From NCBI RefSeq assembly GCF_022846255.1, contig NZ_AP025682.1: DNA of 64,000 nt. One strand, 5' to 3'. The notes under the pieces were generated by a model, which saw only the letters and a list, made by a program, of their open reading frames with translations, ran no database searches and had not been told where the DNA came from. Every line of letters begins with the position of its first letter. Position 1 is the first letter of the stretch. This DNA is from Escherichia coli (lineage in GTDB: Bacteria; Pseudomonadota; Gammaproteobacteria; Enterobacterales; Enterobacteriaceae). Shown piece by piece: positions 1-32,492 of this stretch. Made by a program: the position numbers and the translations under genes.

Positions 1-792
1 AACCTGGACTGGTGGGAGCATTCCGAACGGCGTCAGCGGTTCAAACAGCTTCTGCGCGAACAGGAGCAGATCGATGCCGACGAGGTGATCATGTCGCCAC
101 AGCGGGCACGGGAGCGCGGCCTGACCTCAACGATCACTTTCCCGGTGGGCAATATTGCCCCGGAAGGGTCGGTTATCAAATCCACCGCCATCGATCCCTC
201 GGTGATTGATGATCGGGGCATCTATTACCATAAAGGCGTGGCGAAGGTTTATCTGTCCGAGAAAAGCGCGATTTACGATATCAAGCACGAGAAGATTAAA
301 GCGGGCGATATTCTGGTCATCATCGGCGTTGGCCCTTCCGGCACCGGGATGGAGGAAACCTACCAGGTCACCAGCGCCCTGAAACATCTGTCCTATGGCA
401 AGCATGTTTCACTGATCACCGATGCGCGTTTCTCGGGTGTTTCCACGGGAGCCTGTATCGGCCACACAGGGCCAGAAGCACTGGCCGGAGGGCCAATCGG
501 TAAATTACGCACCGGAGATATTATTGAAATTAAAATTGATTGTCGCGAGCTTCAGGGCGAAGTCAATTTCCTCGGAACCCGTAACGATGAAACATTACCC
601 TCACGGGAGGAGGCCACCGCAATATTAAACGCCCGACCCAGTCATCAGGATTTACTTCCTGATCCTGAACTGCCAGATGATACCCGACTCTGGGCGATGC
701 TCCAGGCGGTAAGCGGCGGGACATGGACGGGTTGTATTTATGATGTAAATAAAATCCGCACGGCCTTGCGCGATTATATGAATAAAAACTGA
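1..792 (+). CDS. Sugar-acid dehydratase, IlvD/EDD family, C-terminal part (5' end lies outside window)
   Basis: Frame 1 is open from base 1 to the stop at 792; translation has the IlvD/EDD C-terminal signature (RFSGVSTGACIGHTGPEALAGGPIGKLRTGDIIEIKID), resembling YjhG/YagF-type xylonate dehydratases. Confidence 0.75.
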   Translation, partial: NLDWWEHSERRQRFKQLLREQEQIDADEVIMSPQRARERGLTSTITFPVGNIAPEGSVIKSTAIDPSVIDDRGIYYHKGVAKVYLSEKSAIYDIKHEKIKAGDILVIIGVGPSGTGMEETYQVTSALKHLSYGKHVSLITDARFSGVSTGACIGHTGPEALAGGPIGKLRTGDIIEIKIDCRELQGEVNFLGTRNDETLPSREEATAILNARPSHQDLLPDPELPDDTRLWAMLQAVSGGTWTGCIYDVNKIRTALRDYMNKN

Positions 793-898
793 AAGCAAAA
801 ATAAAAATATCCAGACGCCTGAATTATCCGGTTACGCATTATTCATCCTGTGCGCAGCCGGATAATGACGGCTCGTTACCCTATAATGAGAGGACGTT

Positions 899-2248
899 AT
901 GCCACTAATTATCGTTGTGGCAGGGATTGCTTTACTCCTGCTTTTAACCATAAAAATTAAGCTTAATACGTTTGTTTCGTTAATTATTGTCTCGATTGCT
1001 GTCGCCATCGCCAGTGGTATGGATTTGAGTAAAGTCGTCACCTCAGTCGAATCCGGACTTGGCGGTACGCTGGGCCATATTGGTTTGATATTTGGCTTCG
1101 GTGTTATGCTCGGTCGCTTGCTGGCCGATGCGGGGGGGGCGCAGCGAATAGCGCTGACCATGCTGAATTATTTCGGGAAAAATAAACTTGACTGGGCAGT
1201 GGTCTGTTCGGCGTTTATTGTCGGTATCGCACTTTTTTTCGAAGTCGGTTTAATTCTTCTGGTACCTATTTTATTCGCTATTGCCCGTGAAGCAAAAATA
1301 TCACCGATGTTTATGTGTGTGCCGATGCTTTCCGGTTTGCTGGTCGCACACGGTTTTTTGCCGCCGCACCCCGGCCCGACAGTAATCGCCAGAGAATATG
1401 GTGCTGATGTAGGATTGGTACTGATATACGGTATCATTGTCGGCATTCCAACCTTTATTCTTTGCGGCCCGGTATTGAATAAATTCTGCCAGCGCATTAT
1501 TCCGGAAGCCTTTAAAAAAGAGGGGAATATAGCCTCTCTCGGCGCGACCCGCCGGTTCAGCGAAAGCGAAATGCCTGGCTTTGGGATCAGTTTTCTCACG
1601 GCAATGCTGCCGGTGATCCTGATGGCGGTTGTCACCATCATCCAGATGACTCATGCCAAAAGTGCCGCGGATTCAGGCTTATTCTACAACGTGCTACTGT
1701 TCTTAGGTAATTCGACGATCGCCATGCTGATTTCACTGCTGTTCGCGATCTATACCATGGGCCTGGGGCGCGGGAAAACAATCCCTGACCTGATGGATTC
1801 TTGCGGAAAAGCTATCGCGGGTATTGCCGGTCTGCTGCTGATTATCGGTGGTGGTGGTGCATTCAAGCAAGTTCTCATCGACTCTGGCGTTGGTCAGTAT
1901 ATTTCCACCCTGGTTTCGGGTATGGATATTAACCCGATCCTGATGGCCTGGGGCGTGGCCGCATTCCTGCGTATTTGTCTGGGTTCAGCCACCGTCGCGG
2001 CGATCTCTACCGCCGGTCTGGTCATCCCATTGTTGGCAGTACATCCCAATACCAACCTGGCCTTGATTACGCTGGCTACCGGTGCCGGATCCTGTATTTG
2101 TTCTCACGTTAACGATGCCAGTTTCTGGATGATTAAAGACTTTTTTGGCCTGACCACCAAAGAAACGCTGTTATCCTGGACGCTGATGTCCACACTCTTA
2201 TCCATCAGTGGGCTGATTTTTATTCTGCTCACCAGCTTAGTTTTATAA
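899..2248 (+). CDS. GntP-family (gluconate/sugar-acid:H+) permease
   Basis: 449-aa polytopic membrane protein with GntP-family sequence character; RBS-like GAGGA upstream of ATG. Confidence 0.85.
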
Positions 2249-2398
2249 TCGGGTTCTTGCCAGTGAGCCAACCTGTTGTTCACTGTCCCCCATAATTTAG
2301 TGAGTGACGGCAACCGTCTGCACGGTGACGAATCGCTGGCGATCAAAAAGGGGCGATATTGAACCGTCGATTATGCTTGTTGAGTGTACTCTCAGTAA

Positions 2399-2435
2399 TA
2401 CTGTAAAGCCGGAGCATGTCTCCGGCTTTACAGTA
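2399..2435. repeat. Perfect 16-bp inverted repeat with 5-nt loop (TACTGTAAAGCCGGAG-catgt-CTCCGGCTTTACAGTA)
   Basis: Read directly from sequence; lies between GntP gene and regulator gene; no T-tract on either side, so not a canonical intrinsic terminator. Confidence 0.6.
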
Positions 2436-2594
2436 TGGGGGAACAGCGGGCGATCGCTCAAATGGTATGCTGGTTTATTTCATGTAAAAGAATAAAATAT
2501 CTGTATAAAATCATGCCACTGGCAATCTGCATCAACTCTCCGGGTAAACAGGGTTAAGATGAGCATTTCCCCGGTTTAATACAGGTATACAAAA

Positions 2595-3581
2595 GTGGAT
2601 AGAGATCAAACAAACAGCAGCCTGTTCAATGATGATCCCGTGCTTCATGCAACATGGCTGTACTATCAGGAAGGCAAAAGCCAGACTGAAGTTGCAGCTA
2701 TCATGGGGGTGTCCCGCGTCACGGTTGTCAAATACCTGCAAACAGCCCGGGAAAATGGACTGGTTCATATCAACCTGGATGTGAATGTCTTTGGCTCTAT
2801 CGACGCTGCTTTGCAAATTCGCGATAAATTCAATCTCCTGAGAGTGATCATCGTGCCGGATGGCGAACATGCCGGAAAACGTGATGATACAAAGCTGATG
2901 CGGACTCGCCTTTCACGTGCCGGTGGCATGTATCTGAATCAGGTGATTGAGAATGGTGATGTGCTGGGGGTTGCCTGGGGAAGAACAATCCATCAGATGA
3001 GCAAAACCATGACGCCGAAGTCATGTAAAAATGTCACCGTTATACAGATGCTCGGTTCCATGCCATCTCAGCCAGACCTGACGATCATTGAATCCTCATC
3101 GCAAATCGCCTACAAGCTTTCAGGCCGTGTCGCTTCGCTGCACGTGCCCGCCGTGGTATCAAGCGCCAGACTGGCCATGGAGTTACAGGCAGAGCCTATT
3201 ATTCGATCGAATTTTGACGTTCTGACTCGCTGTACGAAAGCCTTTTTTGTCGTGGGTAACACGCTTGATGAAAATCCCCTGATTCGGGTGGGCGTGCTGA
3301 ATAAGAAGGAAATGCAGACGTATCGAGATTTAGGCGCAGTAGGTGTCATTTGTGGCCGCTTCTATGACAAGGAAGGGATGCCCGTCGTGGCTGATGTTGA
3401 CCAGCGTATTCTGGGAATCAGTCTGGCTCAGTTAAGGCAGATTGAACGGAAGATCTTTCTTGCTGGTGGCGAAAGAGGCTATGACGCAACGTTGGGTGCC
3501 CTGCTGGGAGGATATGTCACTGACCTGATTGTTGATGAAGGAACGGCAGAGTTTTTGCTGGCGTGTGAATTACCACACTAA
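2595..3581 (+). CDS. SorC/DeoR-family transcriptional regulator (N-terminal HTH, C-terminal sugar-phosphate-binding domain)
   Basis: 328 aa; HTH segment SQTEVAAIMGVSRVTVVKYLQTARENGLV followed by a SorC-type effector domain. Confidence 0.8.
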   Translation: MDRDQTNSSLFNDDPVLHATWLYYQEGKSQTEVAAIMGVSRVTVVKYLQTARENGLVHINLDVNVFGSIDAALQIRDKFNLLRVIIVPDGEHAGKRDDTKLMRTRLSRAGGMYLNQVIENGDVLGVAWGRTIHQMSKTMTPKSCKNVTVIQMLGSMPSQPDLTIIESSSQIAYKLSGRVASLHVPAVVSSARLAMELQAEPIIRSNFDVLTRCTKAFFVVGNTLDENPLIRVGVLNKKEMQTYRDLGAVGVICGRFYDKEGMPVVADVDQRILGISLAQLRQIERKIFLAGGERGYDATLGALLGGYVTDLIVDEGTAEFLLACELPH

Positions 3582-3591
3582 AAGAATGAAC

Positions 3592-3626
3592 TACTGCCCC
3601 ATGTGGATATGGGGCAGGATTTTATT
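3592..3626. terminator. Hairpin between convergent genes (candidate bidirectional terminator)
   Basis: CTGCCCCAT...ATGGGGCAG stem followed by GATTTTATTG; sits between the stop of the regulator (+) and the stop of the transporter (-). Confidence 0.5.
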
Positions 3627-4626
3627 GATTAGCGGCGATAATAAGAACAATACCCACAATGTATGAAATAAACATAGTCAGCAGCAGTTTATTGGTTCCG
3701 GCTGGCGCACTGGCAAATTCTCTCCAGATGAAGACTCCCCAGATCACGGCAATCATTGTGGCACCCTGTCCCAGACCGTAGGAAATGGCATAACCCGCCT
3801 GACCAGACGCAATCAAACTGAATGCCAGACCGACACACCAAATCATACCGCCCAGCCAGCCGCAAACATGATCCCGTAAACTCCCGGAAAAATACATTTT
3901 CCTGTTGACAGGTTCTCCTGAAATAGGCTTTTTCATGACCAGCGTGTTAAGGACAAAGTTCGACAAAAACAGCCCCACGGCAAACAGAACAAGTGCTGAG
4001 TACGGCGTCATCAGACCGCTGGCAGGCTGGCTGAAATTGTCAGACATGGAGTCCGCCAGGAAGCGGAAAAACCATCCCATGATGATACCCGCAAGAATGG
4101 CAGTGATGAGGCCTTTGTTACGGCGAGATTTATCCGCCTCCTGCGTGACACGGCCATAGGCTATCGCGGTAAAAATAATGGCGATCACAACGCAGGCGAC
4201 ACCGAGGAACAGAATGAGCGGATCGCCCTGCGGATTGCCGATATAGGTGGTGATCACACCCAGAGCCAGTGCCAGCCCCACCCCCACAGGAAAAGCTACC
4301 GCCATACCGGCAAGATTAATAGAAGCCACCAGAAGAATATTGGAAATATTGAAGATAATCCCTGCCAGTATTGCCGACATCAGACTACTGTTGCTCGCCT
4401 GCTGAATATCAGGTATAAAGCTGCGACCGGCTTCGCCCATAGAACCCAGAGTGAAGGCAAATAACAAAGAACACAGCAATAATCCAATTGAATAATCCCA
4501 ATAGAATAGAGGGAACTCCCATTTTTTATTACTGACAAGTTTAGTTGTATTCGCCCATGAACCCCAGCAAATCATAGTAATAAAACACATTATTATGGCG
4601 ACAGCATACGATTCCACGATAAACAT
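3622..4626 (-). CDS. Sugar transporter, DMT superfamily (GRP/RhaT/GlcU-like), about 10 TM helices
   Basis: 334-aa hydrophobic protein with two-half internal repeat architecture typical of RhaT/GlcU-type sugar permeases; last gene of the kinase-isomerase-aldolase operon. Confidence 0.7.
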   Translation of the reverse strand: MFIVESYAVAIIMCFITMICWGSWANTTKLVSNKKWEFPLFYWDYSIGLLLCSLLFAFTLGSMGEAGRSFIPDIQQASNSSLMSAILAGIIFNISNILLVASINLAGMAVAFPVGVGLALALGVITTYIGNPQGDPLILFLGVACVVIAIIFTAIAYGRVTQEADKSRRNKGLITAILAGIIMGWFFRFLADSMSDNFSQPASGLMTPYSALVLFAVGLFLSNFVLNTLVMKKPISGEPVNRKMYFSGSLRDHVCGWLGGMIWCVGLAFSLIASGQAGYAISYGLGQGATMIAVIWGVFIWREFASAPAGTNKLLLTMFISYIVGIVLIIAANQ

Positions 4627-4729
4627 AAATAACTCCTTGTGGTAGTTATAATCAATCGTTGTGGACAGAGGGCATAACAGCCATTCCTCGAATGGCTGTT
4701 ATATGTTATTAATTAAAATAAAGCTGTAA

Positions 4730-5371
4730 TTACGCTTTCAAACCATACGTTTTGAATTTTTCAAGAACGATGGTCATTTCGGCTTCAGACAGAACGGGAA
4801 CATCGTGATGTAATCCGCCACATTTGATGTATAAATCAGCCAGCGTCTCAGTTTCACCCGCCAGCCACAACGTCTTTTCCAGCGTGACGTCCATGGCCAG
4901 CATACCGTGGTGCTGCATCAGCAAGGACTTACTTTCTCTGATTCCTTGAGATACACTGTCGGCCAGTTCAGGGCTGCCAAAGGTATAATAGGGAATACAG
5001 GGAATATGATCCGTCCCCGATACCGCCACCATATAATGAATAGCCGGAATTGAATGATTATGTATTGCCACCGCCGTGGAATTCACCGCATGCGTATGTA
5101 TGACAGCATTCAATTCTGGTCTGGCTTTATAACACGCCAGATGAAATAGCCATTCACTTGATGGTATTTTACCCGCTTCAGGTATTCCCTTATCGTCTAC
5201 AAAGACAATCATGTCCGGCGTCATCTTTGAATAAGCGATCCCACTCGGTGTAATCAACATGCCACCGGTATATCTGGCACTCACATTACCTGATGTTCCT
5301 TGATTCAGACCTGACGCATTCATTTCCCGACAAATGGAAATGATATTTTCTGCTAACTTAATCCTTTCCAT
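4730..5371 (-). CDS. Class II (metal-dependent) aldolase, FucA/AraD fold; candidate 5-deoxyribulose-1-P / methylthioribulose-1-P aldolase
   Basis: 213 aa, class II aldolase/adducin-domain size and histidine-rich motifs (HTHAVNSTAVAIHNH); positioned downstream of the MtnA-like isomerase. Confidence 0.8.
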   Translation of the reverse strand: MERIKLAENIISICREMNASGLNQGTSGNVSARYTGGMLITPSGIAYSKMTPDMIVFVDDKGIPEAGKIPSSEWLFHLACYKARPELNAVIHTHAVNSTAVAIHNHSIPAIHYMVAVSGTDHIPCIPYYTFGSPELADSVSQGIRESKSLLMQHHGMLAMDVTLEKTLWLAGETETLADLYIKCGGLHHDVPVLSEAEMTIVLEKFKTYGLKA

Positions 5372-5401
5372 TACTGCTCCTTAACAGAAGTGATCGTCGT
5401 T

Positions 5402-6517
5402 TTAATGCAGCTCGTCCTGGAGTGCTTTACTCTTCAGGTCAGCAAACATATCCGCCAGAGCTGACTTACTGGCAGCACAGACTCCCCGTTCAGTAATGAG
5501 GCCGGTAATGTATCGGGCAGGCGTGACGTCGAAAGCGTAGTTCTCACAACGGGTTCCTTCAGGGGCGGTATTGACCCAGCTCAATTCTCCCTGAGTATTT
5601 ATCCCATAGACATGGGACTGCTCTTTTCCGTCACGTTGCTCAATCGGAATGGTTTTTCCGTCCTCGATAGTCCAGTCAATAGTGGGAGAAGGTAGCGCGA
5701 CGTAGAAGGGAACATGGTTATCATGGGCCGCCAGCGCCTTAAGATAGGTACCAATTTTATTACAGACATCCCCTCTGGCCGTGGTTCGATCGGTCCCCAC
5801 TATACAGAGATCAACGTCACCGTGTTGCATCAGGTGGCCACCCGCATTGTCGGCAATCAGGGTGTGAGGAATACCGTGTGAACCCAGTTCAAATGCCGTG
5901 AGTCCACCCTGATTACGTGGCCGCGTTTCATCCACCCAGACGTGAACAGGGATTCCGTTTTCATGCGCTTTATAGATGGGAGAAAGCGCGGTTCCCCAGT
6001 CTACGGTCGCCAGCCAGCCTGCGTTACAATGTGTCAGGATATTGACCACACTCCCGGCCGATTTTTTCTGGGCTATTTCGCGGATGACTTCTGCACCATG
6101 TAATCCAATTTGTTCGCACAACGCGACATCTTCCTCGGCAATTTCTGCCGCCAGCGCCCAGGCCACATCCTTGCGCTCTGATACACAGAGATCCTTCAGT
6201 GTGGCTATCATCCTGTCGAGAGCCCATTTGAGGTTAATTGCAGTTGGTCGGGTTTTGATAAGAAGGTCATAGTAACGCTGCAGACCTACGTCACTGGCAT
6301 TGTGGTTCATTCCCAGTGCGATACCATATGCCGCAACGACACCAATAAGCGGGGCGCCACGAACCCACATCTCCTGAATAGCCGCAGCGGCCATTTCCGC
6401 AGAGGTAAGCGCCACCACTTCAAACTTAAAAGGCAGCTTAGTCTGATCGATGATCTCTACCGCTTTTCCATCCCCGGAAACCCAGACCGTTCGGTAGTGT
6501 TTACCTTTAATATTCAT
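5402..6517 (-). CDS. mtnA: S-methyl-5-thioribose-1-phosphate isomerase family protein (eIF-2B alpha/beta/delta-like); candidate 5-deoxyribose-1-P isomerase
   Basis: 371 aa; translation shows MtnA/eIF-2B-type isomerase character; stop is 9 bp from the upstream kinase gene. Confidence 0.8.
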
Positions 6518-6526
6518 AATGACCTC

Positions 6527-7786
6527 TTACTTAACCTTCGCAGACTGGATGACGGAGTCCATATTTTTAAACTGGCGGGCATTGACAATAAGATCGCGCG
6601 CCATGGTCAATGCACGTCGTTCACATTCTGCGCGAAGCTCTGTATTTTCAATCTGTTTCAGCTCGGCAACGCCAGCAAAACCAATGATCCGGCGATTCAT
6701 TTCCATGCCGGCATTCACCAGGGAATCTTCAAGCAGCGTGGCAAAAAACTGATCCTGTGCGTCCTCAAGAGCGGCCCTGTTCTGTTGATACATTTCTGTC
6801 GGCCACGCGTCACCCTGTGTTTTGTTGTCCCAGAGCTGGCGGAACTCCCGGGTGAAAACTGACCAGGTGTGGACAATCTGCTGAAGTAGCCATTCCTGAT
6901 AGTCAGCGCGACGTTGCTCATTTGCATCCCACCCAGGGCGTGAGAAGAACGCCAGCAGGAGGTTGCCAATATAGTTGCCGATATCAAACGCCATTGGTCC
7001 CATGAAACCGAACTCCGGATCAATCACTTTGGTATCCGTGTCGGTCACCATGATTGAGCCTGAATGAAGGTCACCATGTAACAATGCCTGCGCTTCTGTC
7101 ATAAATTTGTACTTATAACGCATGGCAACCTGGAGCATCTCTACATCAGCCCAGGCCTTATGGACGGCATCGTCCAGCTCAGGAGAAGTCCAGTTATTCC
7201 GTTCCGCGTTGTAATAGGGCTCTGTGAAGATCAGATCTTCCGTAATTTTGCACAGCTCATGATTCAACGCGAACTCAGCAGTAAGCGCTTTTTTCTGTTC
7301 TGCTGACATGCCAATGTCAGACGTATTAAAGAGAGTCTGTGCTAAAAATCTGCCGATATCTTCAGCTAGCTTAGGGAATTTTTTACCGTTAATCAGTCCC
7401 TTACGCAGAATTACGTGAGGCGTCAAATACTCCATGGCAAACAGTGCCATTTCCGGGTCATAAAAATAGACCTGGGGAATCAGTGTGTGACCCGCGTACT
7501 TGGCTTCCTGACATAAGACGTTGTACTCAAAGCCCGCACGGCTCAGAGATAAAGGCCATCCTTCGCCCCCTGCACGAAGCCAGGGCAGAGCTTGTTTTAC
7601 AATGATGGTTTTATGTGTCCCCTTAACGATAAACACCATGTTCAGGTTTCCGTCCCCCACTTCTGAAACTTTCCACTCTTCTGGTAACCCTCCCGGTTCG
7701 CATGAAGGGGTCAGTCTGGACGAGAGATAACCAGGCAGCGTGTCACATGTCAGCGGCTTGTAACCTGATGGAATTGAATCCGTCAT
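6527..7786 (-). CDS. mtnK: Methylthioribose kinase family protein (MtnK-like); candidate 5-deoxyribose kinase
   Basis: 419 aa with the MtnK/aminoglycoside-kinase-fold catalytic motif HGDLHSGSIM and DPEFGFMGPMAFDIG; first gene of a kinase-isomerase-aldolase-transporter operon. Confidence 0.8.
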   Translation of the reverse strand: MTDSIPSGYKPLTCDTLPGYLSSRLTPSCEPGGLPEEWKVSEVGDGNLNMVFIVKGTHKTIIVKQALPWLRAGGEGWPLSLSRAGFEYNVLCQEAKYAGHTLIPQVYFYDPEMALFAMEYLTPHVILRKGLINGKKFPKLAEDIGRFLAQTLFNTSDIGMSAEQKKALTAEFALNHELCKITEDLIFTEPYYNAERNNWTSPELDDAVHKAWADVEMLQVAMRYKYKFMTEAQALLHGDLHSGSIMVTDTDTKVIDPEFGFMGPMAFDIGNYIGNLLLAFFSRPGWDANEQRRADYQEWLLQQIVHTWSVFTREFRQLWDNKTQGDAWPTEMYQQNRAALEDAQDQFFATLLEDSLVNAGMEMNRRIIGFAGVAELKQIENTELRAECERRALTMARDLIVNARQFKNMDSVIQSAKVK

Positions 7787-7810
7787 AACAGTTCTCCTTA
7801 TCTACACAGA

Positions 7811-7850
7811 ATGATAACTGACTTATCATATGGCAACTATACTTTATCAT
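7811..7850. promoter_or_regulatory. Candidate operator: palindrome ATGATAA-ctgac-TTATCAT plus a third TTATCAT half-site 13 bp away, 25-60 bp upstream of the mtnK-like start
   Basis: Read from sequence at 7811-7829 and 7843-7850, in AT-rich promoter region of the operon. Confidence 0.35.
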
Positions 7851-8291
7851 GTGTAAAGTAATTTGTGATGCATGTAGATTTTTTGAACTGGAGAAAATTA
7901 AAAATAATGTTGTATGGAGTCATGATCTTTACAGGAATTAGTAGGGTGCATTCCTGTTATTTATATAAAATTCATTGTATTACATAAAAATGACGGTGCT
8001 GCGCGGGGAATTGTCTCGGGCAATCTTAGACGAAAGGAAGTATTGAAGTGACAGAATAATCTACATTTTTTATACATGTGTATTTTTCTGTTGTCTTTTG
8101 TTTTTAGCGTATGGTGTTTTTATGCCGATGTCTAATAGACAGATAGATTCGAGGGCCAACAGCCCCATTATCATGATGGAGCAACAGAGGTGAGTCTAAC
8201 GTTTCCGTACTTCTTATCGATCGGCACTAACAATCCTTTGTGATAACGGTATTCCCACACAGAGAAACCCACGTACCTGAATAAAAAAAAG

Positions 8292-8720
8292 ATTACTGGT
8301 GTGGAAATGGGATTAACAGATTATGCCATCAAATCGGATGGTAATGAGGTCAATAATCCTCGTCATCTCATTAACGTCAACTGTAATCTGCGACGCAAAT
8401 TAGCCAGCATGATGAATAATAAACACAATCTGGCAAGAGCGTTAGGTGATGCTGATTGGCACGGCTTTATCAACAAACTGGAGTACAAGGCAGCCGAAAA
8501 AGGCGTTCATCTGGTAAAAATCGACCAGTAGTTTGTCTGTTCGAAAAGCTGCTATTGTTGTGGTTACAAAATGTTGCTTCAAAAACGGATCTGGCGATGC
8601 CCTGAATGCGGTGTTGAACATGACCGGGATATAAATGCGGCAATCAACATAAAACTTAAAGACATACAGGAATTAAAGGCGGCGGGCCCCGTCGTCTCTG
8701 TCTATGGAGGAGCTGCGTAA
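8292..8720 (+). pseudogene. IS200/IS605-family TnpB (RNA-guided nuclease) remnant: C-terminal fragment with internal frameshift/deletion
   Basis: Translation ITGVEMGLTDYAIKSDG...ARALGDADWHGFINKLEYKAAEKGVHLVKID matches the TnpB RuvC region; the zinc-finger segment RCPECGVEHDRDINAAINI follows in another frame; N-terminal ~200 aa absent. Confidence 0.6.
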
Positions 8721-8984
8721 ACCCGTCGTACAGACGGTTGCAGCCTGAAAAGTGGGAAGGCCTTGCCCGATTGGGCGGGGAGTAGTCACCCTTGGAGTCA
8801 TTTTTATCCGGTGTATTAATATGCTCCTAATAGTTAATCTGGTTATAATATTTTTTTTTTGATTATGATCACGAAAATATCTCGGTTTTTATTTGCAAAA
8901 CTTGAAACGTGAATCCAAAAAAGATAAATATTTGTCCGCAGTGACTTCTTTTCTGTTGAAAAGTTCAATCTAAAGGGCAAAAAA

Positions 8985-10097
8985 ATGAAAAAAATTACAG
9001 TGGCACTTTCTGTGGTTGCGGCATCTGTTCTGATGGCAATGTCTGCACAAGCGGCAGAAATCTATAACAAAGACGGTAACAAACTGGATCTGTACGGCAA
9101 AGTTAATGCAGAGCATTACTTCTCTTCTTCAGCTAGTGATGACGGGGATAAAACTTATGCTCGTATGGGTTTCAAAGGTGAAACTCAGATTAATGACCAG
9201 TTAACCGGTTTTGGTCAGTGGGAGTACGAATTTAAAGGTAACCGTACTGAAACTGAAGGTTCTGATAAAGATAAAACTCGTCTTGCGTTTGCAGGGCTTC
9301 GCTTTGGCGATTATGGTTCGCTCGACTATGGTCGCAACTACGGTGTAGCTTATGATGTTGGCGCTTGGACTGACGTGCTGCCGGAGTTTGGTGGAGATAC
9401 CTGGACTCAGACTGATGTATTTATGACCCAGCGTGCTACTGGCGTAGCGACCTATCGTAACAATGATTTCTTCGGCTTGGTTGATGGTCTGAACTTTGCT
9501 TTGCAGTATCAAGGTAAAAATGATAGTGCTGCAAAAGTGAATAACTGGAAAGGCCGTGACGAAGTTGAATCTAATGGTGATGGCTTTGGTCTGTCAGCTA
9601 CTTACGATTATGAGGGATTTGGCGTTGCTGCAACCTATGCAAAATCTGACCGTACTGATGGGCAGGTATCCTATGCTAAAGACAGCCCTCTGAATGCCTC
9701 TGGTAAAACTGCTGAAGTATGGGCTACGGGCCTGAAATATGATGCAAACAACATTTACCTGGCTGCAACTTATTCTGAAACTCAGAATATGACAGTCTTC
9801 GGTGATGACCATATCGCAAACAAAGCGAAAAACTTTGAAGCTGTTGCTCAATACCAGTTTGATTTCGGCTTGCGTCCGTCCATCGCTTACCTACACTCTC
9901 GCGGTGAAAATATTGGTGCGTTCGGTAACCAGGATCTAGTTGAATACATCGACGTAGGTGCGACTTATTACTTCAACAAAAATATGTCCGCTTTCGTTGA
10001 CTACAAGATCAACCTGATTGATGAAAGTGAATTTACCAAAGCATCTGAGGTTGCAACCGACAACATCGTTGCTGTTGGTATGACCTACCAATTCTAA
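8985..10097 (+). CDS. General bacterial porin, OmpC/OmpF/PhoE (GBP) family, divergent paralogue
   Basis: 370 aa; signal peptide ending [20 protein letters not shown], internal [25 protein letters not shown]-terminal YQF typical of 16-strand porins. Confidence 0.9.
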
Positions 10098-10253
10098 TTT
10101 TGGTAGGTAAGAATATGCGGGAAGGGAGTGATGTCACTGCCCGCATATAGGTGGCACCCTCATGCCACCTTTGAAGAGGCAATTTTATTGCCTCTTCTCA
10201 ATTTAACTTCATGTTATTTATTACCCTTTTATTGATTTGAAACTCTATTGTTG

Positions 10254-22609: not shown

Positions 22610-23386
22610 TTATTTGTTGGGGGGGGCCTGCTGATCCGTTTCACCAGTTGAGTTTGCAGCTGGAAGTTCTTTTGTCTTTGCTGTATCAATTGATTTGATT
22701 TGTTCGATGGCAGTTATATTACCTGACATTGCTTCATTGAGCACTTCTACTGCCCTACGGGCATCACGATCCTTGATCGACATGTAGACCTTGATATGAG
22801 CTTCCACACTCTCTAGGGTGATACCTAGCGCACGGTTAAGCTCTTCAAGATAGTAGTAATAGATGTCTTTAATCGAGTTCATCACGTTATAGAACACGCT
22901 GTTGTGTGATGCTCTGACTATTGCCAGATGGAACTCGTAATCCGCTTCCGAATACTTTTTGTAGTCCCCCTTATTGATCAACATATTATTCAGAGCTTCT
23001 TCGAGCTGGCGAATGTCGTCGTCGGTGGCGTGAGTGACAGCGAGTTCCACGCATTTGAACTCCACGGTCTGACGGAAAATCATCATATCGTGAAACTCTT
23101 CGCGGCTAAGGTGCATGATAGGACGTGGATCGTTACTCAACATTTGCGGGGTGAAGTTTGTGCTCACGTAGCTGCCACAGCCCTGACGTGTCACAACAAT
23201 CCCCAAGGTGCGAAAGCGCTGAACCGCACTACGTACACTGACCCGGCTTACATTAAATGAGTTGGCCAGCTCTAATTCTGAGGGCAAACGGCTACCTGGT
23301 GGCCAGCTGCCGTCCAGCAGTTTTCCACTTATTTGATCATAAACTTCATTTACAACATTCTGTTTCTGAATGGATTTTATGCTCAA
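22610..23386 (-). CDS. GntR-family regulator (FadR subfamily, FCD effector domain)
   Basis: 258 aa; N-terminal GntR winged HTH (LPSELELANSFNVSRVSVRSAVQRFRTLGIVVTRQGCGSYV); C-terminal codons include an 8-nt homopolymer. Confidence 0.85.
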   Translation of the reverse strand: MSIKSIQKQNVVNEVYDQISGKLLDGSWPPGSRLPSELELANSFNVSRVSVRSAVQRFRTLGIVVTRQGCGSYVSTNFTPQMLSNDPRPIMHLSREEFHDMMIFRQTVEFKCVELAVTHATDDDIRQLEEALNNMLINKGDYKKYSEADYEFHLAIVRASHNSVFYNVMNSIKDIYYYYLEELNRALGITLESVEAHIKVYMSIKDRDARRAVEVLNEAMSGNITAIEQIKSIDTAKTKELPAANSTGETDQQAPPNK

Positions 23387-23464
23387 GATGGGGTCCGAAG
23401 TCAGTTTAGATAAGCCAATAATATATCATCTTTAAAATCAAAGCGCCCAAGTGGGCGCCCTATA

Positions 23465-24751
23465 TTAACAAGTTTGTGCTTTTGCTTCAGTGGATTTTTT
23501 AGTGCTAAACGAGGTGAGTGAGGTGAGCAACACTGCCACAACCAGCGAAGCACTCATAAAGACATAAGAAGCACCTGGATCGCCCGTTAATCCATTCAGA
23601 TAACCGACAATCCATGAACCAACGAATGAGCCCAGAGCACCGAAACTTACGATAAATGCCATCGCACCAGCCATCACATTACGAGGGATAATTTCTGGTA
23701 TTGCGGCAAAGAATGGTCCGTAAGGTGTATACATCGCGCCACCTGCAACCATCAACAGGATATACGAGAGCCAAAAGTTGGATTCTCCAACGGTAAACGA
23801 ACCAATAAAGCAGAACGCACCCAATCCTAAAAACAGAAGAACAATGATTTTACGGTTCATAAATTTATCTGAATACCAAGACGCGCCGAGCATAAGTGAT
23901 ACAGCTAATAAGTAGGGTGCTGCTGATAGCCAACCTATTGCTACGATGCTTAATTCAGATGCTGATTTCAAAATAGACGGTAGCCACATAATAAATCCAT
24001 ACATCCCAATATTCCAGAAGAAGTGGATAAATGAGAGTGATAAGACTTTGCCTGAACGAAATGCTTCGCTGTAGTTTTTAATTTCTTTAATATTGGTTTG
24101 CTCTGCCGCAAGTGCCGCTTCTATATCTTTTTTTTCGTGCTCTGTTAACCAGGTTGCATCTGTGGGGCGATCAACAAAGACAAACCACCAGATAACTGCC
24201 CAAATGATGGCAGGGATGCCTTCGATAATAAACATACCACGCCAGCCAAAGGAGTCCACGAGATAGCCTGATAGCACTGACATCCAGAGTACTGTTATGG
24301 GGTTGCCAAGAAAAAGGAAGGTGTTAGCTTTCGACCTTTCTTTCTTAGTGAACCAATGGCTCAGGAAAACAAGCATGGCAGGCATCACAACGCTTTCAGC
24401 CACGCCGAGTAAGAAGCGAATGACCGCTAGGACCTTAACGTCGTGGACCATGCCGGTCGCTGTCGCTAGTATTCCCCACAGAATTAAGCTCCAAAAAATA
24501 AGCTTCTTGGCACTTCTTTTTTCAGCATAAATCCCTCCAGGTACCTGAAAGAAAAAATATCCAAGGAAGAACAGTGCACCCAGTAGTGAGGAAATCCCTG
24601 GTGTAATATTGAGATCCTCAGCCAGACCGGAGGCAGCACCAAAGCCATAATTAGCGCGATCAAGATAGGCAAGGCTATACGTAATAAATGCCAGCGGGAT
24701 CAACTTACGCCAGCGAATCGGCGCTAATTTTTTATGTATATTCTGAACCAT
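23465..24751 (-). CDS. MFS transporter, anion:cation symporter (ACS) family (hexuronate/aldonate-type, ExuT/DgoT-like)
   Basis: 428 aa; N-terminal region LAFITYSLAYLDRANYGFGAASGLAEDLNITPGISSLLGALFFLGYFFFQVPGG typical of ACS-family sugar-acid permeases. Confidence 0.8.
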   Translation of the reverse strand: MVQNIHKKLAPIRWRKLIPLAFITYSLAYLDRANYGFGAASGLAEDLNITPGISSLLGALFFLGYFFFQVPGGIYAEKRSAKKLIFWSLILWGILATATGMVHDVKVLAVIRFLLGVAESVVMPAMLVFLSHWFTKKERSKANTFLFLGNPITVLWMSVLSGYLVDSFGWRGMFIIEGIPAIIWAVIWWFVFVDRPTDATWLTEHEKKDIEAALAAEQTNIKEIKNYSEAFRSGKVLSLSFIHFFWNIGMYGFIMWLPSILKSASELSIVAIGWLSAAPYLLAVSLMLGASWYSDKFMNRKIIVLLFLGLGAFCFIGSFTVGESNFWLSYILLMVAGGAMYTPYGPFFAAIPEIIPRNVMAGAMAFIVSFGALGSFVGSWIVGYLNGLTGDPGASYVFMSASLVVAVLLTSLTSFSTKKSTEAKAQTC

Positions 24752-24806
24752 GATGTTTTCCCATTTAATTACTGCAGTTCGTATAACGAATGTCAGTAGA
24801 TGTTAA

Positions 24807-25574
24807 TTACAGCACCGCGAGCCACCCACCATCAACGTAAATAATTTGTCCATTGATATAATCTGATGCTTTGGATGATAAGAAGATGGCAGTTCCGATG
24901 AGTTCCTCTGGATGTCCCCAACGTTGGGACGGGTTGCTGTTTTTCACCCAAGAATCGAAGTGTTTGTCTTCGATAAGCGCAGTGTTCATGTCGGTGAGAA
25001 TGTAGCCCGGTCCAATGGCATTGGTCTGAATATTAAACTGTGCCCATTCTGCGGCCATTGAACAGGTAAGCATTTTGATGCCGCCTTTTGCTGCCGTGTA
25101 TGGAGCAACTGTTGGACGTGCGGCCTGGCTAGTGAGTGAACCGATATTAATGATTTTGCCACCGCGTTTATGGTCAATCATCCGCTTTGCCGCCGCGCGG
25201 GACACGAGAAATGCACTAGTTAAGTTCGTGTCGATCACCTTCTGCCAGTTTTCCAACTCCAGTTCAACCATCGGTTTGCGGTACTGAATACCAGCGTTAT
25301 TAATCAGGATATCAATACTGATCCCTTGCGCATCAAGTTGACTAAAAGCTGATTCAATCGCTTGTTCATTGGTGACGTCAAAAGCCACACCGTGCGCATC
25401 GTAACCCTTGCTTGTCAGAGACTTTACTGCTTCTGCCAGCAACGTGTCGCGAATATCATTCAGGATGACTCGAGCACCCGCAACGGCAAGTCCCTCTGCA
25501 TAGGCAAGGCCCAGTCCACGTGCTGCACCTGTTACCAACGCCGTTTTCCCCGTTAAATCAAATAAAGCGTTCAT
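24807..25574 (-). CDS. SDR-family oxidoreductase, gluconate 5-dehydrogenase (IdnO/Gno)-like
   Basis: 255 aa; TGAARGLG cofactor motif, catalytic YTAAK, high similarity in pattern to IdnO/KduD-type dehydrogenases. Confidence 0.85.
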   Translation of the reverse strand: MNALFDLTGKTALVTGAARGLGLAYAEGLAVAGARVILNDIRDTLLAEAVKSLTSKGYDAHGVAFDVTNEQAIESAFSQLDAQGISIDILINNAGIQYRKPMVELELENWQKVIDTNLTSAFLVSRAAAKRMIDHKRGGKIINIGSLTSQAARPTVAPYTAAKGGIKMLTCSMAAEWAQFNIQTNAIGPGYILTDMNTALIEDKHFDSWVKNSNPSQRWGHPEELIGTAIFLSSKASDYINGQIIYVDGGWLAVL

Positions 25575-25909
25575 ATTGTTTCCTCATGCATTTGTGTTGT
25601 ATGACAACTACCTTTTAAAAGGTAGGGGGTTCGCTACGACAAAAGCAACAATGTGCCCATGAATTTGCAACATGGATCACAAATAGCTTTGTGCAATGAT
25701 TGATGGTCTTATTTAATTTATTGAATTATATGGTGTAATATTTATATTGATGAGCATGGTTTGATCACTGTCACAGAATGGCGTTCGCAACGATCACTTG
25801 CAAATGAAGCGTGATATAACAATGTTGGTTGTAGGACAACCTACATGTTGTGTTGTTCATAACGATATGGATATGGCATACGAGAAAATTACTGAGCTGA
25901 GGTGTAAAA

Positions 25910-27163
25910 GTGAGTAGCCTGAAAATAACTAACGTGAAGACGATTCTGACGGCACCAGGCGGCATTGATTTAGCGGTCGTGAAAGTCGAGACCAACGAGC
26001 CAGGACTATACGGGTTGGGATGTGCAACATTTACTCAGCGTATCTTTGCAGTAAAAAGCGCAATCGATGAATACATGGCACCTTTCCTGATTGGGAAAGA
26101 TCCTACTCGTATTGAAGATATCTGGCAGTCGGGTGCGGTGAGTGGCTACTGGCGTAGTGGTCCCATTATGAACAATGCGTTGTCTGGTGTGGACATGGCA
26201 CTGTGGGATATCAAAGGTAAACTGGCGGGGATGCCGGTTTATGACTTGCTGGGTGGCAAATGCCGTGATGGTATCCCACTATACTGTCATACCGACGGTA
26301 GCGATGAAGTTGAAGTAGAAGATAACATCCGTGCCAGAATGGAAGAGGGTTACCAGTATGTTCGCTGCCAGATGGGCATGTACGGCGGCGCGGGGACTGA
26401 TGACCTTAAACTGATCGCTACGCAGTTGGCGCGAGCGAAGAACATTCAGCCGAAGCGTTCGCCCCGCAGCAAAACGCCCGGTATCTACTTTGATCCGGAT
26501 GCCTACGCCAAAAGCGTTCCACGTTTGTTTGATCACCTGCGTAACAAGCTGGGATTTGGCATTGAATTTATTCATGATGTGCACGAGCGTGTCACCCCTG
26601 TGACCGCTGTTAACCTGGCTAAAACGCTCGAACAATATCAGCTGTTTTATCTTGAAGATCCGGTGGCACCTGAAAACATCGACTGGTTGAAAATGCTGCG
26701 TCAGCAGTCTTCCACTCCGATATCCATGGGTGAACTGTTTGTAAATGTGAATGAGTGGAAACCGCTCATCGACAATAAACTCATCGACTACATTCGCTGC
26801 CACGTGAGTACTATTGGTGGCATTACACCGGCGAAAAAACTTGCGGTCTACAGCGAGTTGAACGGTGTGCGAACCGCATGGCATGGGCCGGGCGATATTT
26901 CTCCGGTCGGGGTCTGCGCTAATATGCATCTGGACTTGAGTTCACCGAACTTTGGTATTCAGGAATACACGCCAATGAACGACGCGCTGCGTGATGTATT
27001 TCCGGGCTGCCCTGAGATTGACCGCGGTTATGCCTATCTGAACGAGAAGCCGGGTCTGGGGATTGAGATTGATGAAGCTAAAGCGGCAAAATACCCGTGT
27101 GAGGGTGGGATACCGTCGTGGACGATGGCGCGTACACCTGACGGTACTGCCTCAAGACCATAA
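25910..27163 (+). CDS. Enolase-superfamily sugar-acid dehydratase, D-mannonate dehydratase (ManD)/RspA-like
   Basis: 417 aa from GTG start with AGGTG RBS; mandelate racemase/muconate-lactonizing-enzyme fold character (MALWDIKGKLAGMPVYDLLGG). Confidence 0.8.
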   Translation: MSSLKITNVKTILTAPGGIDLAVVKVETNEPGLYGLGCATFTQRIFAVKSAIDEYMAPFLIGKDPTRIEDIWQSGAVSGYWRSGPIMNNALSGVDMALWDIKGKLAGMPVYDLLGGKCRDGIPLYCHTDGSDEVEVEDNIRARMEEGYQYVRCQMGMYGGAGTDDLKLIATQLARAKNIQPKRSPRSKTPGIYFDPDAYAKSVPRLFDHLRNKLGFGIEFIHDVHERVTPVTAVNLAKTLEQYQLFYLEDPVAPENIDWLKMLRQQSSTPISMGELFVNVNEWKPLIDNKLIDYIRCHVSTIGGITPAKKLAVYSELNGVRTAWHGPGDISPVGVCANMHLDLSSPNFGIQEYTPMNDALRDVFPGCPEIDRGYAYLNEKPGLGIEIDEAKAAKYPCEGGIPSWTMARTPDGTASRP

Positions 27164-27561: not shown

Positions 27562-28824
27562 TTATTTTAATGGATTATTAATCTTTGCATATTCAAATGG
27601 ACTGATAAATCTTTCTCTATTTGCATCCAGAAAATCGGCCCACCATTGTAGCATCAGTCGACGTTCTTCCAGATGTTCTGCTTTATGAATGTAAGCAGCA
27701 CGTACACCATTACGCTCCTGATGGCTCATCTGACGTTCCACAGCATCGCGGGACCACAAACCTGATTCAATCAATGCACTGCACGCCATCGCCCGGAATC
27801 CATGGCCACAGACTTCCTGGGTTGTGTCATATCCCATAACCCTCAGGGCTTTATTTACGGTATTTTCGCTGATTGGTTTACGTGGGTCATGTGCCCCCGT
27901 AAAGATCAGACCATTTTCACCAGCCCATGTCTGAAGTTCTGTCAGTATGGCTACAGCCTGTTTGCTGAGTGGCACAAGATGTGGTGTTCGCATCTTGGAG
28001 CCTCGGTGTGAGAATTTTACGCCTGGCAGAGGTTCGCGTTCGGCTGGAATAGTCCACATGGCATTGTCAATATCAATTTCAGACCAGCGGGCATATCTGA
28101 GTTCACTGGAACGAATAAAAACCAGTAAATTCAGCATAACTGCCCGTCGGGTGACAGGCTGGCCTTTATAACCGCCAATACGCGACAGAAGTTCAGGCAG
28201 ACGTGAAAGATCCAGAGCTGGGCGATGCTGGCGTTTTACCGTAGTCAATGCACCAGCCATATCCAGAGCCGGGTTATATCTGATGATGCCAGACTGTACG
28301 GCATAACGCATTACAGCAGATATTCTTTGCTGCAGACGACTGGCGATTTCATAAATTTGTTTAGCTTCTGCAGCACGAACAGGGATAAGCAGGTCCGGGG
28401 TACTGAGTGTTGTGATATCCCGGTTGCCGATAAAGGGGAATACGTGTGTCTCGAGGCTTTTGAGTACTTTATCGCTGTGTGATTGTGCCCATTGTTTATT
28501 ACTGGCATGCCAGCGTCGTGCAATATGTTCAAAAGAGAGCTGTAAATCAGGGACTACTTTTTTAGCTCTTTTCTGTTCGCAAGGGTCAATCCCCTCCGAA
28601 ATCAGTTTTCGGGCCTCATCCCGTTTTGTACGAGCTTCGGAGAGAGAAACTTCTGGATACACACCAAGTGCCAGAGTCTTCTCCTTACCCAGAATACGAT
28701 AACGGAGACGCCAGTAACGGGAACCATTAGGATGAACCAGCAGGAACATGCCGGCCCCGTCAGTGAGTTTATAAGCCTTGTCAGTGGGCTTTGCAGCCCG
28801 GATTTTTGCGTCAGTCAGCGCCAT
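27562..28824 (-). CDS. int: Tyrosine recombinase, P4-type integrase (island integrase)
   Basis: 420 aa, MALTDAKIRAAKPTDKAYKLTDGAGMFLLVHPNGSRYWRLRYR... N-terminal arm-binding region typical of P4-like integrases; start lies 198 bp from the tRNA-Phe 3' end. Confidence 0.9.
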   Translation of the reverse strand: MALTDAKIRAAKPTDKAYKLTDGAGMFLLVHPNGSRYWRLRYRILGKEKTLALGVYPEVSLSEARTKRDEARKLISEGIDPCEQKRAKKVVPDLQLSFEHIARRWHASNKQWAQSHSDKVLKSLETHVFPFIGNRDITTLSTPDLLIPVRAAEAKQIYEIASRLQQRISAVMRYAVQSGIIRYNPALDMAGALTTVKRQHRPALDLSRLPELLSRIGGYKGQPVTRRAVMLNLLVFIRSSELRYARWSEIDIDNAMWTIPAEREPLPGVKFSHRGSKMRTPHLVPLSKQAVAILTELQTWAGENGLIFTGAHDPRKPISENTVNKALRVMGYDTTQEVCGHGFRAMACSALIESGLWSRDAVERQMSHQERNGVRAAYIHKAEHLEERRLMLQWWADFLDANRERFISPFEYAKINNPLK

Positions 28825-29021: not shown

Positions 29022-29097
29022 TGGTGCCCGGACTCGGAATCGAACCAAGGACACGGGGATTTTCAATCCCCTGCTCTACCGACTGAGCTATCCGGGC
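29022..29097 (-). tRNA. pheV: tRNA-Phe (GAA anticodon)
   Basis: Reverse complement reads GCCCGGATAGCTCAGTCGGTAGAGCAGGGGATTGAAAATCCCCGTGTCCTTGGTTCGATTCCGAGTCCGGGCACCA, the canonical E. coli tRNA-Phe. Confidence 0.95.
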
Positions 29098-29202
29098 AAC
29101 GGGGCGCATTAAACCTGATTCGCCTCGTCTCGTCAATCAAATTTCTTCAATTTAGTGCAGACTGCACAATCTATCATCACTTTGCCGCTATTGCACGCAT
29201 TG

Positions 29203-29910
29203 TCAGGCAAACCAGGCGGTCCAGGCGGCGGAAAGCGGCATTGCCAGAAGGAGTGCTGGAAGCATGTTGACCACCGGGAACATTTTAATGCCACAGATGC
29301 GTAATCCGGTTGCCAGCAGCAATAAACCGCCTACGGCGCTGAAGTCTGCCATCATCGACGGTGTGGTCAGCGGTAATATCAGCGCGGCAGCCCACGCCAG
29401 TGTTAACTGGATGATCAGTAATGGAATGCTAATCACCGACACCGCAATACCCAGCGAGCAGGCGAAGATCATCGCCGTAAAGAAATCAAGAAATGACTTG
29501 GCGATTAAAATACTTGGATCGCCGGTCATCCCTTCGTTCATCGCCCCGAAGATTCCGGTGCCGCTGGCGCAAAACAGGACAATAATCGCGACAAAATTCT
29601 GAATAAAAGATTCATGCGCTGGCTTCTTACGCGAGTGGTGAAACAGATTATGCGCTTTGGCGACCACTGTATTGACGCCTTTTTCCAGCAGACAAATTTC
29701 GCCGATTAATGCTCCGAGTAAGGTTGCTAAAACCATCGCCGGAAGGTTGGCGCATTTCACCACCAGTAAAATACCAATCCCCAGCGATGCCAGACCAAAA
29801 ATTGATGTCATGGAGACGCGGATACGTTCCGGTAAGCGTTGGCTAAGGAGTGCGCCGAAAACGCCACCCAGTAAGACTGCACTTGCGTTGATAAAAGGGC
29901 CGATGACCAC
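29203..29910 (-). CDS. yqgA: DUF554 inner-membrane protein YqgA
   Basis: 235-aa membrane protein in the position of yqgA beside the tRNA-Phe gene; conserved synteny. Confidence 0.9.
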
Positions 29911-30308
29911 AAGAGTTCCTGTTAGCTGTATTGTTTGATTTTCTTATTATGAACTTTTGGCGCCGTCGATGGCTTGTTTGTTCGCAAAGTCCTGGCTTGC
30001 ACGCTTTAGCGAAAGGTGCCATGATTGCGCGAATTTTCTCCTCTCTGTACGGAGTTTGCCCGATGCACGCCACCTCCTTACATTCTCTCGCTTATCGCCG
30101 TTTCGCGCGAAACTCTTCTCTTTTTATGCTACTGCTCATGCGGTGAAGTTAACGCACGCTCACTGCAGGACAACAGTAAAATCAGAGCGTTTCTGCTTTT
30201 ACTGATGTCTGGCGGTCGGAGCTGGTGACCAGTTTGACCCATATCTCATGGGGCAGGGTTTTCCACCTTGTCCGGTATTCTTACTTCCCCTAAACGGGTT
30301 TTGCGCTT

Positions 30309-32444: not shown

Positions 32445-32492
32445 GAATAAAAAAACGGGTCACCTTCTGGCGACCCGTTTTTCTTTGCGTAA

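Follow-up and report, generated by a model that had tools for sequence, protein, structure and literature searches.

A SorC-type regulator between D-xylonate genes and a dihydroxyacetone phosphate shunt operon on an Escherichia coli island belongs to the shunt

A stretch of 64,000 nucleotides from Escherichia coli (contig NZ_AP025682.1 of assembly GCF_022846255.1; the whole stretch is called the window below) opens with the 3' part of an IlvD/EDD-superfamily dehydratase gene, a GntP-family permease gene and the gene of a SorC-type regulator, yjhU (now mtnR), which are followed on the opposite strand by the kinase operon of the dihydroxyacetone phosphate (DHAP) shunt. This layout raises the question of which gene set the regulator serves and whether its neighbors act in one pathway or in two. 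The original prediction, made from the sequence alone, was right about the positions and orientation of the three genes and about the regulator being convergent with the kinase operon, as confirmed by the list of open reading frames and by Pfam and NCBIfam scans; it offered two readings, either two independent catabolic modules with a common regulator or one pathway for some unusual substrate, for example a deoxy-aldonic acid. We consider it highly probable (about 0.9) that the locus consists of two independent, already characterised catabolic modules lying back to back on a mobile island, and the independence of the modules is supported by family matches, by published regulators and by linkage across genera. 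The regulator belongs to the shunt, and its juxtaposition with the dehydratase and permease genes is a genomic neighborhood, not a shared pathway. The correction to be made is thus that the SorC regulator goes with the shunt and not with the sugar-acid genes. Every gene of the locus is annotated, both modules have been characterised, and a study of 2025 established what the regulator does.

The regulator gene yjhU (2595-3581, + strand) encodes a protein with a SorC-type Sugar-bind domain (PF04198, 265 bits, residues 64-323) and helix-turn-helix matches at residues 19-57, and its top NCBIfam match is the Bacillus-type DeoR model NF053881, with 209 bits over the full length. YjhU has been renamed MtnR and represses the shunt promoter P1 in strain ATCC 25922, as demonstrated with a deletion mutant, with lacZ fusions, by qRT-PCR and by complementation (Huening et al. 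2025, PMC12632272). Deletion of mtnR raised expression of the shunt operon about 5 log2-fold on glucose, complementation restored repression and the effect was specific to P1; according to the authors, the shunt operon and efeU, and nothing else, were upregulated in the deletion strain (PMC12632272). The window protein shows 99.1% amino acid (aa) identity to WP_000373366.1, one RefSeq protein that is common to K-12 and ST131 and that served as the reference here in place of the experimentally studied ATCC 25922 protein. Near-identity to the allele of a shunt-bearing strain, together with the adjoining shunt operon, qualifies the window YjhU, on sequence grounds, as the MtnR orthologue. A promoter scan was uninformative with regard to yjhU, as sigma-70-like matches numbered 7, below the 12.8 obtained with shuffled sequence.

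The operon that faces the regulator starts with mtnK, encoding a 5-methylthioribose/5-deoxyribose kinase (6527-7786, - strand; TIGR01767, 521 bits, cut-off 275), and continues on the same strand with mtnA, encoding a 5-methylthioribose-1-phosphate/5-deoxyribose-1-phosphate isomerase (5402-6517; TIGR00512, 412 bits, cut-off 279), and with the class II aldolase gene ald2 (4730-5371; PF00596, 173 bits; NF005984, 361 bits), which RefSeq names L-fuculose-phosphate aldolase. These three genes are intact, co-oriented and all above their family cut-offs, and gaps between genes are 9-30 bp. The last gene (3622-4626, - strand; PF07168 and PF06800) codes for a GRP/RhaT-like sugar transporter of the drug/metabolite transporter superfamily, termed 'GRP family sugar transporter' in RefSeq, and is a putative importer of 5-deoxyribose or methylthioribose. 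In ATCC 25922, mtnK, mtnA, ald2 and the transporter gene form one operon that is induced by 5-deoxyribose and to which CRP adds catabolite control; the route leads from 5-deoxyribose through its 1-phosphate and ribulose-1-phosphate to DHAP and an aldehyde, with Ald2 cleaving 5-deoxyribulose-1-phosphate or methylthioribulose-1-phosphate in the final step (PMC12632272). The convergent transporter gene and yjhU are only 40 bp apart, and the gap holds a GC-rich hairpin (3594-3617) with T-rich sequence on both sides. A terminator scan gave it 10 pairs, 6 of them GC, and the tail GATTTTATTG, and folding gave -22.7 kcal/mol (z = -5.2), which makes a bidirectional terminator likely.

On the other side of the regulator, the first 792 positions of the window (+ strand) hold the 3' 263 codons of yjhG, the D-xylonate dehydratase gene of the YjhG/YagF family, in a frame (frame 1) that runs without interruption from the edge of the window up to a stop codon at 790-792. 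The fragment matches PF24877 (ILV_EDD_C) and, among 8 IlvD/EDD models in the NCBIfam scan, scores best with TIGR03432, the YjhG/YagF D-xylonate dehydratase model (459 bits, covering 387-639 of the 640 model positions; the fragment alone is bound to stay below the 808 bits required of a full-length protein). It is 99.2% identical in aa sequence to residues 393-655 of YjhG in strain SCEC020001 (locus L001), where the gene is uninterrupted and encodes 655 aa, with 95% aa identity to K-12 YjhG. Judging from this locus, the truncation is the window edge and not a genomic one, the N-terminal 392 residues of the present copy, the part expected to hold the Fe-S cluster and Mg ligands of the catalytic site, falling outside the window. 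The original prediction had called for the upstream sequence, and in L001 the complete 655-aa dehydratase gene is preceded by yjhH, yjhI and sgcR. The permease gene yjhF (899-2248, + strand; RefSeq name yjhF), the last gene of the yjhIHGF unit, is full-length (PF02447, 604 bits, positions 1-440 of 440; TIGR00791, 652 bits, cut-off 293), and its product shows 99.5% aa identity to K-12 YjhF. YjhF is presumed to be a D-xylonate/H+ symporter; the literature assumes xylonate as its substrate (PMC13279387), and the place of its gene in operons of both E. coli and Serratia speaks for this. YjhG and YjhH have been characterised as xylonate dehydratase and 2-keto-3-deoxy-xylonate aldolase, respectively, and the xylonate operon yjhIHG(F) is activated by the IclR-type regulator YjhI with 2-keto-3-deoxy-xylonate as effector, no cross-talk having been found between YjhI and XynR, the other xylonate regulator (Malfoy et al. 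2026, PMC13279387).

Between yjhF and yjhU lies a spacer of 346 bp, 98.8% identical to that of ST131, which contains a perfect hairpin with a 16-bp stem and a 5-nt loop (2399-2435, + strand). The fold of 2385-2460 reaches -39.3 kcal/mol (z = -6.5) and was equalled by 0 of 200 shuffles. The hairpin has no T-tract beside it on either strand and matches no Rfam family; its probable role is to mark the 3' terminus of the xylonate transcript or to stabilise that transcript. The hairpin and the long spacer suggest that yjhF and yjhU are transcribed separately. To call the sugar-acid genes 'fused' to the shunt, as the original prediction did, goes too far: this hairpin and the spacer part yjhF from yjhU, and the terminator hairpin parts yjhU from the shunt operon.

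Each module has its own published regulator, MtnR for the shunt (PMC12632272) and YjhI for the xylonate genes (PMC13279387). The first module is the tail of the D-xylonate operon yjhI-yjhH-yjhG-yjhF, in which YjhF would import xylonate, YjhG would convert it to 2-keto-3-deoxy-xylonate (as shown for the K-12 enzyme), YjhH, encoded upstream of the window, would split this product into pyruvate and glycolaldehyde, and YjhI would sense 2-keto-3-deoxy-xylonate as an IclR-type activator. The second module consists of the shunt operon and its own repressor and would convert 5-deoxyribose or methylthioribose to DHAP and an aldehyde. MtnR would keep P1 shut in the absence of substrate and would probably be released by a phosphorylated intermediate of the shunt, and CRP would exert additional catabolite control. 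A phospho-sugar ligand for MtnR would agree with its SorC-type sugar-binding domain and with Bacillus DeoR as its best family match. Bacillus subtilis DeoR is a repressor that responds to deoxyribose-5-phosphate, and no intermediate of the xylonate pathway is known to be phosphorylated.

The distribution of the regulator outside E. coli provides the evidence that separates the two modules. Relatives of YjhU were scanned in one genome per species, and nine proteins of the locus were mapped onto the matches by tblastn. All YjhU homologues found outside E. coli at 66% identity or more adjoin ald2-mtnA-mtnK. In Providencia rettgeri (YjhU 89% aa identity) and Citrobacter amalonaticus (98%), the shunt is adjacent and convergent with the regulator gene and includes the GRP transporter, and yjhG and yjhF are missing; upstream genes are those of an aldehyde dehydrogenase and a thiamine pyrophosphate (TPP) enzyme in the former, and of Hcp/Tlde1 and a phage integrase in the latter. 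Three Vibrio genomes and one Aliivibrio genome (L005, L006, L014, and L017; YjhU 66-79%) likewise have the shunt next to the regulator gene, here in divergent orientation, and no yjhG or yjhF. Only in Citrobacter sp. On2M (YjhU 98%, other proteins 94-99%) is the adjacent shunt accompanied by yjhIHGF, and this genome evidently carries the same island as E. coli. Six of the seven non-E. coli loci with regulator and shunt, from four genera, therefore lack yjhG and yjhF. In both bacterial orders concerned the regulator goes with the shunt unit, unlike the xylonate genes. An inseparable pair of modules is likewise at odds with the presence of xylonate genes without the shunt in K-12 and with the yagE-yagF-yjhF operon of Serratia 39006 (PMC11778176). 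Independent occurrence of the two operons in other genomes had been named in the original prediction as grounds for refuting it, and these loci show such occurrence. The linkage of MtnR and shunt has been kept from Enterobacterales to Vibrionaceae despite changed transporters and gene orientation.

More distant homologues were not accepted as MtnR orthologues, namely those of Proteus species (about 60% aa identity) and Pararhizobium (36%), as no shunt was present in the fetched flanks. The Proteus loci (L008-L013, L015, L016, L018, and L020) have no shunt within flanks of up to 10 kb and no yjhG or yjhF, and in P. mirabilis (L013), the sole one inspected, the neighbors are unrelated and comprise an ABC transporter of the SBP_bac_11 type and RlaP proteins. 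The Proteus proteins probably represent a sister regulator that acts on another target. Transporter genes also vary among shunt loci. In Vibrio marinisediminis (L014, 5702-9841), genes of an RbsD/FucU protein, a ribose-type ABC ATPase, a permease and a binding protein precede mtnK-mtnA-ald2 and replace the GRP transporter gene; transporter genes were inspected in this Vibrio locus only, and the arrangement in L005, L006, and L017 was deduced from gene spacing. In C. amalonaticus (L007, 16369-20184), about 1.2 kb upstream of mtnK and on the same strand, there are genes for an iron-type alcohol dehydrogenase, a MaoC-like dehydratase, a protein of the dihydrodipicolinate synthase (DHDPS) family that is 46% identical to YjhH, and an amidohydrolase; as a speculation, the alcohol dehydrogenase might handle the aldehyde product of the shunt.

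Within E. coli the arrangement is common. A megablast search with window positions 1-8300 found matches in 1622 of 5426 complete E. coli genomes, and 1087 of these 5426, ST131 among them with the same layout as the window, carry the whole block (at least 80% of 1-8300 in one place). The adjacency noted in the original prediction is therefore real and recurrent; it can hardly be called 'not a textbook arrangement', as roughly one in five complete E. coli genomes has this layout in its annotation, with the RefSeq names yjhG, yjhF, yjhU, GRP family sugar transporter, L-fuculose-phosphate aldolase, mtnA and mtnK. Identity of the block to annotated E. coli loci is 96-100%, and the closest genome is that of SCEC020001 (99.7%). 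In total, yjhU is present in 1601 of the 5426 genomes, intact ald2-mtnA-mtnK in 1076 and remnants of these genes in another 156, and K-12 and about 370 further genomes have yjhGFU without any trace of ald2-mtnA-mtnK. K-12 has the order sgcR-yjhI-yjhH-yjhG-yjhF-yjhU and no shunt, similarity to the window ending at 3679, where an IS1 element and the fec locus follow.

The lone yjhU of strains such as K-12 needs an explanation of its own. The 98 nt that lie 3' of yjhU contain the terminator and the 58 terminal nt of the transporter gene, and 1596 of the 1601 yjhU-positive genomes keep them. One IS1 end, GGTAATGACTCCAACTTACTGATAGTGT, which is backed by the fec locus in both cases, adjoins the window-equivalent position 4773 in strain CFSAN061762 (junction at about 8772 in L024) and 3679 in K-12 (10679/10680 in L002); given the adjacent IS1 annotation, we take this sequence to be the IS1 terminal repeat. 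In other strains the shunt breaks off within mtnA or within ald2, the latter at 5038 beside a cbtA remnant. The occurrence of one IS1 end at two positions of the shunt gives K-12 the pattern of nested IS1-adjacent deletions. Repeated deletion of the shunt would fit this picture, and the lone yjhU of K-12 looks like a remnant stranded in this way and less like a regulator retained to serve a second regulon. The latter has been suggested by Huening et al., who regarded mtnR as widespread and retained for other targets (PMC12632272), and it is consistent with the upregulation of efeU in the mtnR deletion and with the intact K-12 protein, whose RefSeq accession is shared with ST131. However, a gene found in 1601 of 5426 genomes is not broadly conserved, and the transporter gene end that is kept in nearly all yjhU-positive genomes, the nested junctions at 4773 and 3679, and the further shunts that stop within ald2 or mtnA also speak against it. 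We therefore regard retention for another regulon as possible but doubtful.

Several observations weigh against complete independence of the two modules. In E. coli the shunt was never found away from yjhU-yjhF-yjhG (1076 intact shunts compared with 1087 whole blocks), which points to one inherited locus within the species, and therefore data from E. coli alone cannot separate the modules. Moreover, yjhU and yjhF point in the same direction and the hairpin between them is without a T-tract, so that read-through from the xylonate operon into mtnR would be possible. In Dataset S1 of the MtnR study, yjhG occurs in the 'Gene categories' sheet, which is assumed to comprise genes differentially expressed in one or another of the comparisons (PMC12632272). 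All this could be accommodated by a regulator shared between the modules, with MtnR acting as repressor of the shunt and adjusting yjhF or the xylonate operon as well, or with xylonate-induced read-through from yjhF raising MtnR and thereby ranking xylonate above 5-deoxyribose; the constant company of yjhG, yjhF and yjhU in E. coli and the existence of at least one MtnR target outside the shunt, efeU (PMC12632272), are in line with it. However, the upregulation reported for the mtnR deletion was confined to the shunt operon and efeU, which argues against the sharing of the regulator that the original prediction had offered (PMC12632272). The xylonate operon has YjhI as a dedicated regulator free of cross-talk with XynR (PMC13279387), the six genomes from four other genera keep regulator and shunt without yjhF or yjhG nearby, and the conserved block of the mtnK promoter described below is missing from the yjh promoters. 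Taken together, a shared regulator appears quite unlikely. From gene orientation alone, one may further imagine a substrate hierarchy in which xylonate, or activation by YjhI, raises MtnR through read-through of the xylonate operon past the T-less hairpin (2399-2435) and holds the 5-deoxyribose pathway off, or in which MtnR tunes yjhF directly, and this we consider very unlikely.

A single pathway, in which the dehydratase, the GntP permease and the kinase, isomerase and aldolase of the shunt would act on one substrate such as a deoxy-aldonic acid, is extremely improbable. Physical adjacency in 1087 genomes alone speaks for it. The two routes have no common intermediate (PMC13279387, PMC12632272), and each occurs alone, the xylonate genes in K-12 and the shunt in Providencia, C. 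amalonaticus and Vibrio. Compared with the common allele, identity also jumps from about 87% in yjhG to about 99% in yjhF, so the histories of these genes differ. Two modules, with MtnR on the side of the shunt, remain the preferred reading.

The mtnK promoter was inspected for sites through which MtnR might act. The promoter region of the window (within 7787-8300) is a divergent variant in comparison with ST131, with 83% identity over the first 174 nt upstream and 72% beyond, and Dataset S2 of the published study lists a near-identical genome, CP032426.1, at 84% promoter identity (PMC12632272). The block TTTACAnnTGATAAnGTATA (7838-7857, - strand), just downstream of the published P1 start 72 nt before mtnK, is more conserved among E. 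coli, Citrobacter and Providencia than any other stretch of the mtnK promoter and is invariant in the five aligned sequences. From this conservation we infer that the block is a candidate MtnR operator. When the window and L001 were searched with up to 3 mismatches, the sole close match (0 mismatches) was at mtnK in both, and the other match in the window (13962-13981) had 3 mismatches; no copy was found near yjhF, yjhU or yjhI, which is weak negative evidence. The published semi-palindrome CAAAT-N9-ATTTG was rejected as an operator probe, because it is mutated in the window promoter variant and in Providencia: it reads CAAATTACTTTACACATG in the window (7838-7870, - strand), where the right half ATTTG is changed to ACATG, and CATTAACTTTTACAATTG in Providencia. 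With at most 1 mismatch, CAAAT-N9-ATTTG gave 5 matches in the window against 4.7 expected, and none of them fell at the mtnK promoter or close to a yjh promoter. The published candidate operator is thus not conserved, whereas the neighboring block is. A palindrome common to enteric and Vibrio promoters was also sought by eye, but TACAT-N6-ATGTA and TTTGTAT-N8-ATACAAA differ and the idea was dropped as over-interpretation. An Rfam scan of 1-12000 (E-value of 0.1 or lower) detected nothing within 1-8400.

The genomic setting of this copy differs from that in the reference strains. Window positions 29100-33000 are E. coli core chromosome (yqgA-speC-nupG, 99.8%; yqgA 29203-29910, speC 30309-32444), next to which are a tRNA-Phe gene (29022-29097, - strand) and an integrase gene beside it (27562-28824, - strand). 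Judged from the neighbors yqgA-speC-nupG, we take this tRNA gene to be the pheV site. The sgcR-yjhIHGFU-shunt block here lies in the tRNA-Phe island (window 1-29097), compared with the fim/nan/sgc (KpLE2) region in ST131 and K-12, and apparently moved as a unit. At the nucleotide level, for which ST131, bearing the common allele, was the reference (K-12 was compared at the protein level only in the yjhG/yjhF region), identity is 86.6% for the 3' part of yjhG and 82% for the yjhG-yjhF spacer, and it is 98.7% for yjhF, 99.0% for yjhU and 96-98% for the shunt genes. The window copy is an apparent mosaic, and these values would place a recombination break at the yjhG/yjhF boundary.

Beyond mtnK, the island contains a decayed TnpB/InsQ remnant (about 8230-8748; annotated as a pseudogene in L001) and an extra gene for an OmpC-like porin (8985-10097) between mtnK and the rest of the island, followed by a sub-threshold GcvB-like Rfam match (10093-10279; 28 bits against 42) and by an IS3-family element (10351-11501) with a sub-threshold match to the ALIL frameshift-pseudoknot family of Rfam. 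A co-oriented set on the - strand (11834-17928) encodes a major facilitator superfamily (MFS) transporter, a peptidase T-like protein (13021-14274), an NhaC-family antiporter (15192-16691) and a PatB-family C-S lyase (16636-17928), and this set may tentatively be read as a module that handles sulfur-containing peptides or conjugates. Another sugar-acid module, unrelated to the first, spans 22610-27163 and comprises genes for a GntR/FCD regulator (22610-23386), an MFS transporter of the D-galactonate transporter family (23465-24751), a short-chain dehydrogenase/reductase (24807-25574) and an enolase-superfamily protein of the ManD/galactonate dehydratase family (25910-27163).

Compared with known systems, the first module corresponds to the yjhIHGF operon of the KpLE2 element in K-12, which has the same genes in the same order under YjhI and in which yjhU likewise follows yjhF; the window copy lies in the island beside tRNA-Phe, whereas the K-12 copy is in the fim/sgc region. 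The yagEFGH/XynR cluster of CP4-6 and the yagE-yagF-yjhF operon of Serratia 39006 have paralogous or orthologous dehydratase, aldolase and permease genes under an IclR-type regulator (PMC13279387, PMC11778176), which in Serratia represses the operon (PMC11778176), and the descriptions of the two clusters in these papers mention no adjacent DHAP shunt or SorC regulator. As to the regulator, DeoR of Bacillus subtilis, a member of the SorC family, has the same domain architecture as MtnR. However, MtnR is not its orthologue, as its 209 bits are far below the equivalog cut-off of 420. The Pfam profile of MtnR is of the SorC-type Sugar-bind class, in contrast to the E. coli DeoR/GlpR type that was used for comparison in the published discussion (PMC12632272). 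In the shunt loci of Vibrio and Aliivibrio, the MtnR orthologue adjoins mtnK-mtnA-ald2 as it does in the window, but the orientation is divergent instead of convergent, and with their different transporters and orientation these loci offer a comparative set for finding the operator and effector of MtnR. The closest counterpart of the second module is the shunt operon of ATCC 25922 and ST131 under the control of MtnR and CRP (PMC12632272), whose four genes and convergent regulator match those of the window.

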